NCBI GenBank assembly: GCA_018064745.1
Contig: JAGHUR010000011.1
Span: 6,137-70,136 of the forward strand
Length of the DNA stretch: 64,000 bases
Reading direction: 5' to 3'
From: Candidatus Fiminaster equi
GTDB lineage: Bacteria; Bacillota_I; Bacilli_A; RFN20; CAG-826
Position numbers and translations under genes: made by a program. Positions 58,993-62,479 of the stretch are shown here, in pieces. The notes under the pieces were generated by a model. It did no database searches, had not been told where the DNA came from, and worked only from the letters and a program-made list of their open reading frames with translations. Each line of letters begins with the position of its first letter. Positions within the stretch are counted from its first letter, which is position 1.

Positions 58993-61620
58993 ATGGGCAA
59001 GTACGATCAAAACAAAACACCATATTTAGATGCTCTTAAAAAGTATCTTTCTGATGACGTTCTTCAATTAGATGTTCCAGGACACGAAAGAGGAACATTA
59101 CCAAGTAAGTTTAGAAACTTTATTGGAGACTCTGTCTATAACGCTGACGTAAACGCGCCTATTGGAATGGACAATTTAGCCAATCCACAAGGAGTTCTTT
59201 TAGAAGCAGAAAAATATTTTGCTGATTTTGCTAATGCAGACAAGTCATTTTTCCTAGTTAACGGAACCTCTAGTGGCATTCTCGCTATGATTATGGTCGC
59301 GTGCAGTGCTAACGAGAAAATTATTCTCCCACGCAACGTGCACAAATCAATTATTTCTGCTCTTATTCTTTCTGGTGCTTCACCAATTTTTATTGCACCA
59401 AAAATTGATGCAGATTTAGAAATTGCTAATCAACCAACAGTTGATGATTATATTAATGCTATGCATAAATATCCTTCAGTGAAAGCAATTTTTGTTATTA
59501 ACCCAACTTATTTTGGCGCAGTTAATGACTTAAAACATTTAGTTGAAGAAGCTCACGCTAGAGGAATTGCGGTTTTGGTCGATGAAGCACACGGTGCTCA
59601 TTACTATTTTGATAAACAAGGACCAATTTCAGCCATGGATGCTGGAGCTGATATGTCTTCAGTTTCTTTCCACAAGACTGGTGGAAGTTTAACTCAATCA
59701 TCTGTTTTACTCCTCAAATCTAAACTTATTGATAGAGCTAGAGTTCAAAAAACTCTTAACATTTTAAACACAACTTCCCCATCCACAATTCTTATGGCAT
59801 CAATTGATTCCGCAAGATCATTTGCAGCCACAAAAGGCCAAGAATATATGGAAAAACTCCATGAAGTTTCTAAATATGGTCGTGAACAGATTGCAAAAAT
59901 TAATGGATTTGTTCCTTGTGGAAAAGAACATTTTAAAACTCGTGGTTGCTATGATTATGATGAAACAAAACTTGTTATCAAGCTTGAACATTTAGACATT
60001 AATGGTTTTGATGTTTATCAACTGCTCAAGAAAAAATACAACATTCAAATTGAGTTAGCAGAAACATATGTCATTATGGGCGTTTTATCAATGGCATTTA
60101 CAAAACAAAAAATGAATCGTTTAATTGCTGCACTCAAAGACATTTCAAAAAATCATTACAATAAAAAATACAATTATGAACGTCACGCCTTTGGCGTTGA
60201 TTTCCCATTCCAAGTCGTTAGACCAAGAAGTGCTTTCCATGCACCAGGAAATAAAGTTTTACTTAAAGATGCAGTTAACTGCATCTCTAGAGAATCAATT
60301 ATGATTTATCCTCCAGGAATTCCTTTAATTGTTCCGGGAGAAGTTTTCACAAAAGATTTAGTCGATAGAATTTATGCCTATAAGAAAACGGGCTGCACAA
60401 TCCTTTCAGATTACCATGGAGATTACGTTAACGTAATCGATACGACAAAGTGGAGAGCTTATAGAGCTCATAAAAATAAACTTAATGACTATTTGGTCAA
60501 GAGAATTTCTACACCTCGTGCAGATGAGTTTTCTATGCCTTTTGAAGGCAATAAACACAGTGGAACTATTGTTCTTTTACCATTTAGAAAAGATACTTGG
60601 AGAAAAAATGCTGAACCAGCACTTGAAAACTACAAACAAGTTATTACCAGTATTGCAAAATATGAACCTGTTTATGTTGGAATATCTCCAAAATTATGGA
60701 ATCGCGTAATCAAAGATTACGAAGGACTTAAAAATATTTATCCAATCAAGATTGCTTATAACGATGCTTGGGCACGTGACAATTCTCCAATTTTTGTTAC
60801 AAATGGTGACAGAATGAGAATCGTTGACTTTAGATTTAATGCTTGGGGCGGTGAAGTTGATGGATTGTACTCAAACTACAAACAAGATGATGCCTTAACT
60901 AAGAATTTAGCAAAGAAATTTGGTGTCGAATGTTATAGATTAGAAGACTTCATTCTTGAAGGTGGATCAATTCATGTTGATGGGGAGGGAACTTGTCTTG
61001 TAACAAAAGCTTGCCTTCTTTCAGAAGGAAGAAATCCACACCTTAATCAATTAGAAATTGAAGAAACACTCAAGATTTATCTTGGTGTATCTAAAATTAT
61101 TTGGTTAGAACACGGAATTTATGAAGATGAGACTAATGAGCACGTCGATAATGTCGCTTGTTTCATCAAACCTGGTGTTGTTGCACTCGCGTGGACAAAT
61201 GATAAAAATGATCCTCAATATAAATTCTCAAACGATGCTTATAAAGTCCTCAAAAATTCAACTGATGCAAAAGGCAGAAAGTTAGAAATTGTTAAAATTA
61301 AGGTTCCATCACCTATTTATATGTCAAAGAAAGAATCAAAAGGTATTTCTATAGGAAAATATAATGCAAAATCACGTGTTGAAGGAAATAGACTTGCTGC
61401 AAGTTATATTAACTTCTATCAAGGAGAAAAATTTGTCATTCTTCCTGCATTTGGAGTTCCTGAAGATAAGCTTGCTAAGAAAACATTACAAGCTCTTTAT
61501 CCAGAAAAAGAAATTATTCAATTTAACACAAAAGAAATCTTGTTAGGTGGTGGAAACGTTCACTGTATAACAATGCAAATCCCATACAATAAGGAGTTTA
61601 AAAAACGAAATGAAAATTAA
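58993..61620 (+). CDS. bifunctional fusion: Orn/Lys/Arg decarboxylase (SpeA-like, fold III PLP) + agmatine deiminase (AguA)
   Basis: 875 aa, continuous frame. N-terminal ~500 aa OKR_DC with PLP-Lys motif SFHKTGGS. C-terminal ~370 aa has AguA motifs (FSMPFEGNKHSGTIVLLPFRKDTW N-terminus, GGGNVHCITMQIP with catalytic Cys at the C-terminus). Confidence 0.8.
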   Translation: MGKYDQNKTPYLDALKKYLSDDVLQLDVPGHERGTLPSKFRNFIGDSVYNADVNAPIGMDNLANPQGVLLEAEKYFADFANADKSFFLVNGTSSGILAMIMVACSANEKIILPRNVHKSIISALILSGASPIFIAPKIDADLEIANQPTVDDYINAMHKYPSVKAIFVINPTYFGAVNDLKHLVEEAHARGIAVLVDEAHGAHYYFDKQGPISAMDAGADMSSVSFHKTGGSLTQSSVLLLKSKLIDRARVQKTLNILNTTSPSTILMASIDSARSFAATKGQEYMEKLHEVSKYGREQIAKINGFVPCGKEHFKTRGCYDYDETKLVIKLEHLDINGFDVYQLLKKKYNIQIELAETYVIMGVLSMAFTKQKMNRLIAALKDISKNHYNKKYNYERHAFGVDFPFQVVRPRSAFHAPGNKVLLKDAVNCISRESIMIYPPGIPLIVPGEVFTKDLVDRIYAYKKTGCTILSDYHGDYVNVIDTTKWRAYRAHKNKLNDYLVKRISTPRADEFSMPFEGNKHSGTIVLLPFRKDTWRKNAEPALENYKQVITSIAKYEPVYVGISPKLWNRVIKDYEGLKNIYPIKIAYNDAWARDNSPIFVTNGDRMRIVDFRFNAWGGEVDGLYSNYKQDDALTKNLAKKFGVECYRLEDFILEGGSIHVDGEGTCLVTKACLLSEGRNPHLNQLEIEETLKIYLGVSKIIWLEHGIYEDETNEHVDNVACFIKPGVVALAWTNDKNDPQYKFSNDAYKVLKNSTDAKGRKLEIVKIKVPSPIYMSKKESKGISIGKYNAKSRVEGNRLAASYINFYQGEKFVILPAFGVPEDKLAKKTLQALYPEKEIIQFNTKEILLGGGNVHCITMQIPYNKEFKKRNEN

Positions 61621-62479
61621 GGTCGCAATTACTCAAATGAGCTGCTCCTCAAACTACGAGGAAAACATTAAAAAAGCCGAGAAAATGGTGGAAAATTGTG
61701 CAAAAGCAGGTGCAAATATCATTCTTTTGCAGGAACTTTTTTCTAATCTATATTTCTGCCAAGTCGAAGATTATGACAAGTTTGAATTAGCTGAAAATAG
61801 AAGCAAATCAAACTTAATTGAGCACTTTAAAAAAGTTGCAAAAAAATACAATGTAGTTCTTCCAATTTCATTCTTTGAAAAATCAGGAGCAAATTACTTT
61901 AATTCGTTAGTAATGATTGATGCTGATGGTAAAGATTTAGGGATGTATCGTAAAACACACATTCCAACTGGCGAATGTTACGAAGAAAAATTCTATTTCT
62001 CACCAGGAGATACAGGATTTAAAGTTTTCAAAACAAAATTTGGTCGTGTTGGTGTTGGAATTTGTTGGGATCAATGGTTCCCAGAAACTGCAAGAATTTT
62101 AGCATTAAAAGATGCAGAAATTTTACTTTATCCAACAGCAATTGGTTCTGAACCAGTTTTAGTGCGTGATTCCATGCCACACTGGCGCAATACAATGTGC
62201 GGTCATGCAGCTGCAAATATTATTCCTGTCTGTGCTTCCAACAGAGTTGGACTTGAAACAGCAGGAAAATCATCAATGACATTCCAAGGTTTCTCATTTA
62301 TAGCAGACCAATATGGAAATGTTGTTGAAGAAATGGACAGAAAAGAAGAAGGGTTCAGAGTACATGAATTTGACCTTCAATCAATAGATAAAGAAAGAGT
62401 TTCTTGGGGTGTGTTCAGAGATCGTAGACCAGAATGCTACAAGGAATTAATTGGTTATTCAAAAAACTTAGATGAATAA
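61610..62479 (+). CDS. aguB: N-carbamoylputrescine amidase (nitrilase superfamily)
   Basis: 289 aa. MKIKVAITQM. Catalytic Glu/Lys/Cys; Cys in GVGICWDQWFPE. Overlaps the fusion gene by 11 nt. Confidence 0.85.
   Translation: MKIKVAITQMSCSSNYEENIKKAEKMVENCAKAGANIILLQELFSNLYFCQVEDYDKFELAENRSKSNLIEHFKKVAKKYNVVLPISFFEKSGANYFNSLVMIDADGKDLGMYRKTHIPTGECYEEKFYFSPGDTGFKVFKTKFGRVGVGICWDQWFPETARILALKDAEILLYPTAIGSEPVLVRDSMPHWRNTMCGHAAANIIPVCASNRVGLETAGKSSMTFQGFSFIADQYGNVVEEMDRKEEGFRVHEFDLQSIDKERVSWGVFRDRRPECYKELIGYSKNLDE

Follow-up and report, generated by a model that had tools for sequence, protein, structure and literature searches.

A probably bifunctional fusion of an ancestral-form decarboxylase with agmatine deiminase in uncultured gut Bacilli

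Decarboxylases with an aspartate aminotransferase (AAT) fold occur in an extended form and in an ancestral form that lacks the REC 'wing' (PMC8503589). The ancestral-form family includes arginine, ornithine and lysine decarboxylases (ADCs, ODCs and LDCs) and non-polyamine YaaO paralogues, and its arginine-specific members (aADCs) comprise Bacillus subtilis SpeA, Streptococcus pneumoniae SP_0916 and the enzymes of C. difficile and S. ruminantium (Li et al. 2021, PMC8503589). Fusions among polyamine enzymes are on record: an ancestral-form ODC (aODC) with a C-terminal arginase-fold partner in F. nucleatum (783 aa; PMC8503589), aguA-aguB in Ca. Diapherotrites (PMC10407285) and S-adenosylmethionine decarboxylase (SAMDC) with aminopropyltransferase (Green et al. 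2011, as cited in PMC6356823). Here we describe a fusion of an ancestral-form decarboxylase with agmatine deiminase (AguA), encoded at positions 58993..61620 (+ strand) of a 64,000-nt stretch (the window) of contig JAGHUR010000011.1 of Candidatus Fiminaster equi, an uncultured bacterium of the horse gut. Ca. Fiminaster corresponds to GTDB genus UBA3207 in the order RFN20, family CAG-826, of mammalian guts (PMC8957277; NCBI taxonomy). A first, sequence-only reading of the window did not recall this architecture as described, and we likewise found no description of a decarboxylase-AguA fusion in roughly 8 million full texts, a collection that lacks most subscription-journal papers and about 1.4 million PMC manuscripts.

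The fusion gene is a single ATG-to-TAA open reading frame (ORF) of 875 aa in the six-frame ORF list, with exactly the coordinates of the sequence-only reading, and its product has the same sequence as GenBank MBQ0008804.1, which is named 'agmatine deiminase [Candidatus Fiminaster equi]'. Profile hidden Markov model (HMM) searches supported both halves. The decarboxylase domains (59017..60357, +; aa 9-455) were matched by Pfam OKR_DC_1 at aa 9-371 (E = 9.5e-68, 229.3 bits, gathering threshold 27) and OKR_DC_1_C at aa 371-455 (E = 1.7e-7, 32.1 bits, gathering threshold 24.2). The agmatine deiminase domain (60508..61584, +; aa 506-864) is complete, as had been claimed: PAD_porph matched aa 515-864 over profile positions 2-321 of 321 (E = 1e-107), and the NCBIfam equivalog model TIGR03380 (agmatine_aguA) scored 445.6 bits against a cutoff of 381.8 over model positions 1-356 of 357. 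The product of the overlapping downstream gene aguB (N-carbamoylputrescine amidase, 289 aa; 61610..62479, +) exceeded the cutoff of the equivalog TIGR03381 (agmatine_aguB; 425.3 vs 410.25 bits) and matched CN_hydrolase (E = 1.8e-52). No second decarboxylase, AguA or AguB paralogue was found within the 64-kb window.

The sequence-only reading had placed the decarboxylase in pyridoxal 5'-phosphate (PLP) fold type III, and this assignment has to be changed. The nearest sequence and structure neighbours of this half (2X3L, LdcI/LdcC, AdiA and Lactobacillus ODC) are all fold-type I enzymes, and the fold-III domains Orn_Arg_deC_N (PF02784) and Orn_DAP_Arg_deC (PF00278) gave no match in the fusion protein at E ≤ 0.01. 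The REC wing is missing, OKR_DC_1 starting at aa 9, whereas extended enzymes were matched from residue 103-150. We conclude that this half belongs to the ancestral-form AAT-fold decarboxylases (PLP fold type I), the family of B. subtilis SpeA. It shares with aADCs the wingless OKR_DC_1 plus OKR_DC_1_C layout of ~480-500 aa, the PLP lysine in an SxHK motif, the DEAH motif, ~40% identity to homologues in Streptococcus gene clusters and genomic clustering with aguA and aguB. Unlike them, it is joined at its C-terminus to AguA and falls in its own clade together with unlabelled standalone relatives. The AguA half resembles solved agmatine deiminases/iminohydrolases (AguA/AIH; 1VKP, 3H7K, 2JER, 2EWO, 6NIB) at 41-44% identity and in its catalytic Cys, His and Asp motifs; unlike the free enzymes it has no free N-terminus and begins after the decarboxylase tail and a hinge of ~6 residues.

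The same fusion recurred in related genomes. In a search of 5.8 billion proteins we found at least 120 clusters at 90% identity, with a length of exactly 875 aa and 100% coverage in nearly all cases; the assemblies behind them come from ENA, Logan, JGI and NCBI. The window protein's own cluster had 17 members, and 13 of the 15 listed were 875 aa in length. A scan of one genome per GTDB species revealed the fusion in one continuous frame in about 45 species representatives (L001-L045). Forty species-level full-length orthologues measured 869-876 aa, were 50-91% identical and contained no internal stop; their mean column conservation was 0.76 in the decarboxylase major domain and 0.755 in the AguA domain, with a junction of near-constant length conserved at 0.65. 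Because one open frame is kept across these clusters and orthologues, the fusion is genuine and not a frameshift artefact. Among 1.84 billion representatives at 50% identity, the only full-length fusions of this type besides that of the window were P0121 and P0122, indicating that the fusion is restricted to one narrow clade.

Both active sites look intact. In the decarboxylase half, the motifs NGTSSG (aa 90-95), DEAHGAH (aa 197-203) and SFHKT with the PLP lysine K228 (codon 59674-59676) align to 2X3L, LdcC and LdcI. All 40 orthologues keep DEAHGAH unchanged and, within SFHKT, the S, H, K and T; two of them have I in place of F226, and NGTSSG shows a few conservative substitutions. Members of the agmatine deiminase superfamily use a catalytic Cys nucleophile, a His/Asp pair and guanidinium-binding Asp and Glu residues. 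The corresponding motifs AWARD (D596), LEGGS (E656), NEHVDN (H717, D719) and GGNVHCIT (C858, the nucleophile; codon 61564-61566) align to 1VKP, 2EWO, 6NIB and 2JER. Across the 40 orthologues K228, D197, H200, D596, E656, H717, D719 and C858 are all invariant, as is the AguB triad E42/K115/C152 in 55 sequences. An AlphaFold2 model of the fusion protein had a mean predicted local distance difference test score (pLDDT) of 79.1 and a predicted template modelling score (pTM) of 0.61. In Foldseek searches with this model, the AguA half superposed on 3H7C, 1VKP, 2JER and 6NIB/6NIC (target TM 0.90-0.94, root mean square deviation 1.9-2.2 Å) and the decarboxylase half on 2X3L (target TM 0.72); no solved chain spanning both halves was found. 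Judged by its residues and folds, the fusion protein is probably bifunctional.

The closest unfused relatives suggest how the two genes were joined. Two metagenome-assembled genomes labelled Anaeroplasmataceae and Mollicutes (L046 and L048; 51-55% identity) carry decarboxylase, aguA and aguB in the same order, with aguB downstream and no adjacent speE, CASDH or CASDC, as in the window. Unlike the window, they keep decarboxylase and aguA as two ORFs, presumably the pre-fusion state: the decarboxylase ends in ...EINDYYASNK*, and the aguA ATG lies within its last codons in another frame (ATGATTATTATGCAAGCAATAAATGA). The apparent 'linker' of the window protein aligns to the L046/L048 decarboxylase tail (DTTKWRAYRAHKNKLNDYLVKR) and then passes directly into the AguA N-terminus (...ADEFSMPFEGNKH). 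Most of it is thus the decarboxylase's own C-terminal tail (aa 456-504; 60358..60504, +), modelled with a strand at 478-482, a helix at 488-501 and block pLDDT values of 75-90 for aa 471-500. Only the short hinge ISTPRA that follows (aa 505-510; 60505..60522, +) falls below a pLDDT of 50, the sole low-confidence stretch of the junction, and it marks the ancestral overlap of stop and start codons. Since the junction aligns to tail plus AguA N-terminus, the fusion joins overlapping genes end to end, and no linker was brought in from elsewhere. We propose that adjacent, overlapping and translationally coupled genes, with the decarboxylase stop lying over the aguA start, merged into one frame, leaving the ordered tail and the ~6-residue hinge between the domains. 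This would have been a single event, in an ancestor belonging to the uncultured gut and rumen Bacilli of the order RFN20 and relatives. In neighbour-joining trees of each domain L046 and L048 fell outside the fused sequences; the fused sequences and L046/L048 together formed a clade in 40/40 bootstrap replicates, and the fused sequences by themselves did so in 31/40. We also considered an internal start at M515 that would yield free AguA and rejected it, as no Shine-Dalgarno (SD)-like sequence was seen upstream; free-standing AguA enzymes have a conserved N-terminal 'MP.E' motif, with which M515 aligns.

Compared with the described fusions, the window protein is closest in layout to that of F. 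nucleatum, sharing the decarboxylase family and a C-terminal partner of a fold acting on agmatine. In F. nucleatum, however, the decarboxylase is an ODC and its arginase-fold partner is predicted to be inactive, whereas the partner in the window looks fully active. P0138 (782 aa) in our searches shares the F. nucleatum aODC-agmatinase-like architecture. With the aguA-aguB and SAMDC-aminopropyltransferase fusions the window protein has in common that consecutive polyamine steps stand on one polypeptide; the step pair differs, and a decarboxylase-deiminase pair is mentioned neither in PMC10407285 nor in PMC6356823. The fusion combines two well-known enzymes in parallel to other polyamine-enzyme fusions and is a modest variation on known chemistry.

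Our full explanation is that a bifunctional decarboxylase-deiminase arose by a one-time gene merger and serves putrescine biosynthesis, and we give it a probability of roughly 0.8. The N-terminal half would most likely decarboxylate L-arginine to agmatine, the C-terminal AguA/AIH half would hydrolyse agmatine to N-carbamoylputrescine and ammonia, and the separately translated AguB would then yield putrescine, CO2 and ammonia, so that the fusion gene and aguB plausibly cover the route from arginine to putrescine with two genes. Of the two-gene pathway claimed by the sequence-only reading, the intact-looking decarboxylase, AguA and AguB stand, and the arginine step is inferred from context. Several points count against our explanation. 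The trees were built by neighbour joining only, and the monophyly of the fused sequences has 78% support; the inter-domain geometry of the model is moderately confident (pTM 0.61), and both halves correspond to obligately oligomeric enzymes. The decarboxylase half is ~40% identical both to the aODC-type fusion P0138 and to the Streptococcus ADC-type homologues. Characterised enzymes of the family also show that genomic context can mislead: that of C. botulinum is an ODC despite the presence of AIH as well as N-carbamoylputrescine amidohydrolase (NCPAH) in the genome, that of L. ferrooxidans is an LDC beside speD and speE, and that of F. nucleatum is an aODC with an inactive agmatinase as fusion partner (PMC8503589).

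The points on substrate raise the alternative that the N-terminal domain is an ODC, an LDC or a YaaO-like paralogue, with AguA and AguB acting on imported agmatine. Specificity is unreadable from sequence in this family, characterised counter-examples are on record (PMC8503589), and the only solved close structure, 2X3L, comes from S. aureus, whose sole homologue is a putative yaaO homologue (Li et al.). Nevertheless, we regard this alternative as improbable and arginine specificity of the decarboxylase half as very likely, on the strength of its genomic associations. The physical fusion persists down to ~50% identity with both active sites invariant, and P0138 lies in a different part of the tree. 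Wherever an unfused homologous locus has the decarboxylase (12 of 12), it clusters with aguA and aguB. Ten of these loci (L049-L055, L057, L059, L060; Lachnospiraceae, Streptococcus, Roseburia, Butyrivibrio, Lacrimispora and Oscillospiraceae) also contain speE-like, CASDH (carboxyspermidine dehydrogenase) and CASDC (carboxyspermidine decarboxylase) genes; L046 and L048 do not. In gene content the Streptococcus clusters resemble the pneumococcal polyamine operon that includes SP_0916. Experiments have shown SP_0916 to be an ADC (PMC7531197). Among standalone relatives P0125 is the closest (44% identity), and it overlaps a gene of the arginase family that has the size of an agmatinase; the neighbourhoods of P0126, P0139 and P0127 are too short to be of use. 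The hallmark of the YaaO-type paralogue, which takes part in EF-P modification, is a position immediately upstream of tmk (thymidylate kinase; PMC8503589), whereas the window gene has metG upstream and aguB downstream and no tmk adjoined any fused locus examined. In the sole known lineage with a decayed AguA half (see below), aguB is also absent immediately downstream. Furthermore, Li et al. report ADC activity alone among the Bacilli-class ancestral-form enzymes tested.

The setting of the fusion gene bears on its physiological role. As the sequence-only reading had stated, the module lies downstream of metG (methionine-tRNA ligase, 525 aa; 57414..58991, +; NCBIfam NF008900, 733.7 bits vs cutoff 598) and the fusion gene overlaps aguB. 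The metG TAA stop is 1 nt 5' of the fusion ATG (junction sequence AAATAATATGGGC), and no SD for this ATG is present in the junction sequence; an ATG abutting the metG stop without an SD of its own suggests translational coupling. At the other end, the fusion gene and aguB share 11 nt, and an SD sequence for aguB, AAGGAG (61591..61596, +), can be read directly near the 3' end, still within the fusion gene; it precedes the aguB ATG by 13 nt. The end of aguB is in turn overlapped by 8 nt by a gene for an RluA-family pseudouridine synthase (62472..63389, +; Pfam PseudoU_synth_2; TIGR00005 189.4 bits, slightly below the cutoff of 192.7). Most relatives likewise have this gene after aguB, and it closes the apparent operon; 3' of it, a consensus scan alone indicated a strong terminator-like hairpin of 13 pairs followed by a T-run (63411..63440, +). 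Apparently, metG, the fusion gene, aguB and rluA form one tightly packed operon. It is located ~27 kb from dnaA among housekeeping genes, the window otherwise encoding FtsH, TilS, Mfd, Pth, PPDK, KsgA, TatD, signal recognition particle (SRP) RNA, tRNA ligases and a TldD/PmbA pair. Because the operon is tightly packed, apparently constitutive and of housekeeping type near oriC, its role would be the biosynthesis of putrescine from arginine.

Alternatively, the module could be catabolic or protective, conferring acid resistance, ammonia production or agmatine detoxification. Decarboxylation uses a proton and the pathway releases two ammonia molecules, which could buffer hindgut or rumen pH. In addition, the fused loci lack adjacent spermidine-forming genes (by tblastn, neither the window nor the fused loci had speE, CASDH or CASDC homologues), unlike most unfused clusters, and putrescine could be an excreted end product. 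Known systems of this kind share single components with the window. The agmatine deiminase system of Enterococcus faecalis and Streptococcus mutans has the deiminase in common and requires putrescine carbamoyltransferase, carbamate kinase and an antiporter; AdiA/AdiC, whose AdiA belongs to the same decarboxylase superfamily, requires a REC-winged decameric decarboxylase and an antiporter. None of these requirements was present: we found no antiporter, polyamine (ABC) transporter, putrescine carbamoyltransferase or carbamate kinase among nearly all window ORFs ≥ 110 aa, which were scanned, and no antiporter or transporter in the window or in the ±6 kb flanks examined. AguB is a CN-hydrolase NCPAH (TIGR03381), not part of the ATP-yielding route through putrescine carbamoyltransferase and carbamate kinase, and the decarboxylase lacks the REC wing of acid-inducible enzymes (PMC8503589). 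The genes are in an operon common with metG and rluA, with no regulator nearby. The acid-resistance function offered by the sequence-only reading is therefore unsupported, since AguB is a biosynthetic amidase and antiporter, carbamoyltransferase and carbamate kinase are missing from the window, and we hold a catabolic or protective role in general to be unlikely.

A third alternative is that one half of the window protein is catalytically dead and kept for structural or regulatory reasons. There are two precedents: the aODC-agmatinase-like fusion of F. nucleatum, from this enzyme family (PMC8503589), and P0122 (863 aa; locus L061 8001-10592), from the fused clade itself. The decarboxylase half of P0122 is intact, nests in the fused clade and is 58% identical to that of the window. 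Its C-terminal half is only 20% identical and has a replacement at every catalytic position (D596E, E656P, H717K, D719S and C858E), which makes P0122 the analogue, within the fused clade, of the decayed-partner state of F. nucleatum. In the window protein and 39 orthologues, by contrast, all catalytic residues examined are present and invariant, the AguA half scores above the equivalog HMM cutoff and both halves are equally conserved, so that a dead half is very improbable there. Directly downstream of P0122 lies not aguB but a 3'-truncated tmRNA gene (10678-10829, Rfam E = 4.6e-10); ARAGORN gave no match on this stub. The evidence on P0122 comes from a single contig that ends 237 nt past the gene. 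If aguB is truly gone from its genome, this suggests that AguA and AguB act as one unit and are kept or lost together, downstream of a separable decarboxylase.

That a frameshift error of assembly or sequencing created the single ORF from what are really separate speA and aguA genes has next to no probability: the genes of L046 and L048 do overlap in different frames, so that a single indel error could mimic a fusion, and error-ridden assemblies occur in the group, but the continuous frame recurs in the 90%-identity clusters, for which four independent data sources contributed assemblies, in the majority of the proteins that cluster with the window protein and in the 40 species-level genomes, and the junction residues are moderately constrained and modelled as ordered secondary structure. 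The error-ridden example is L058 (CP091735.1, 'Clostridium sp. nC29_bin.1'), which we considered as a pseudogenised fusion and rejected. Its open frames of ≥ 200 aa cover 27% of the locus, compared with 80-98% in other loci, and this fragmentation points to uncorrected long-read errors. Since the locus is frameshifted throughout, it permits no call on whether the decarboxylase, aguA and aguB genes are fused, unfused or pseudogenes.

In every fused locus with enough flank, aguB was directly 3' of the fusion gene. Direct adjacency of metG and the fusion gene was confined to the closest relatives of the window (L001-L003 and L039); most fused relatives had 1-3 kb between the two genes. This gap held a DUF3810 gene in all three loci examined (L004 3756-5974, L009 2797-5973, L013 4638-5801) and, in two of the three, a BD-FAE/alpha-beta-hydrolase esterase beside it. 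The metG gene of the window is of a short form: its 525 aa match positions 3-521 of the 648-position PRK12267 model, and a C-terminal appended domain is apparently missing. Directly upstream of metG we noted a gene with Big_3 and Endonuclease I domains (56378-57385, +), probably for a nuclease that is secreted or a lipoprotein; relatives have one or two paralogous copies of it at the same place.

Elsewhere in the window, the replication origin region spans 28284-42655, with mnmE, jag and yidC on the minus strand and dnaA, dnaN, recF, gyrB, gyrA and serS on the plus strand; between the minus-strand genes and dnaA lies an intergenic stretch of ~1 kb (31716-32699). The bacterial small SRP RNA (RF00169, 66.8 bits; 44348-44444, +) is immediately upstream of a tadA-like deaminase ORF (44442-44897). 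Four ORFs had no Pfam match at E ≤ 1e-6: 51949-53124 (-, 391 aa), 48851-49987 (+, 378 aa), 48321-48842 (+, 173 aa) and 2934-3752 (+, 272 aa).

Our searches also returned other domain combinations. P0174 (1051 aa; L062 1793-4948 and L063 1893-5048, two contigs from two samples) carries a fold-type III decarboxylase and AguA on one protein, with Orn_Arg_deC_N and Orn_DAP_Arg_deC at aa 65-394, ~300 aa without assignment and an intact AguA at aa 705-1050 ending in GGGNIHCIT. By its domain content it looks like an independent, non-homologous decarboxylase-AguA fusion. Neither locus has an adjacent aguB, the neighbours being a GNAT acetyltransferase and an F420-ligase-like gene. Further architectures were an NNMT/PNMT-type methyltransferase with OKR_DC_1 (P0147, 734 aa), a 5-formyltetrahydrofolate cyclo-ligase with AguA (P0156, 556 aa), a 2469-aa protein with OKR_DC_1 close to its N-terminus (P0218) and a decarboxylase with an N-terminal extension of ~210 aa without assignment (P0145, 693 aa).

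Any kinetic benefit of the fusion, from a fixed 1:1 stoichiometry or from channelling of agmatine, is inferred from the architecture. The ordered tail and short hinge could hold both active sites in a fixed oligomeric assembly in which agmatine is passed directly to the deiminase; we consider this a doubtful but conceivable arrangement. Agmatine is traded between species in the gut. If channelling took place, N-carbamoylputrescine would be made from arginine without release of free agmatine, the intermediate would be 'privatised', and the protein would serve as a naturally occurring model of how a PLP decarboxylase and a guanidino-group hydrolase are linked by channelling. Together with aguB, the fusion gene would make up a compact module that leads from arginine to putrescine with two genes, and nature supplies in it a case on which channelling can be tested.

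The fusion does not overturn the current understanding of polyamine metabolism. In a decarboxylase family whose substrates are hard to predict, it is a 'Rosetta-stone' link in favour of arginine as the substrate of one clade. The clade also presents a series from separate overlapping genes through fusion to a state in which the second domain has decayed and aguB has ceased to be a neighbour, which parallels the aODC/pseudo-agmatinase of Fusobacterium. In the databases, bifunctionality is hidden behind hundreds of entries named only 'agmatine deiminase' or, for fragments among others, 'aminotransferase class I/II-fold PLP-dependent enzyme'. As these entries are named for one activity, metabolic reconstructions of RFN20/CAG-826 could miss the arginine decarboxylase and mis-score the ability of these bacteria to convert arginine to putrescine.

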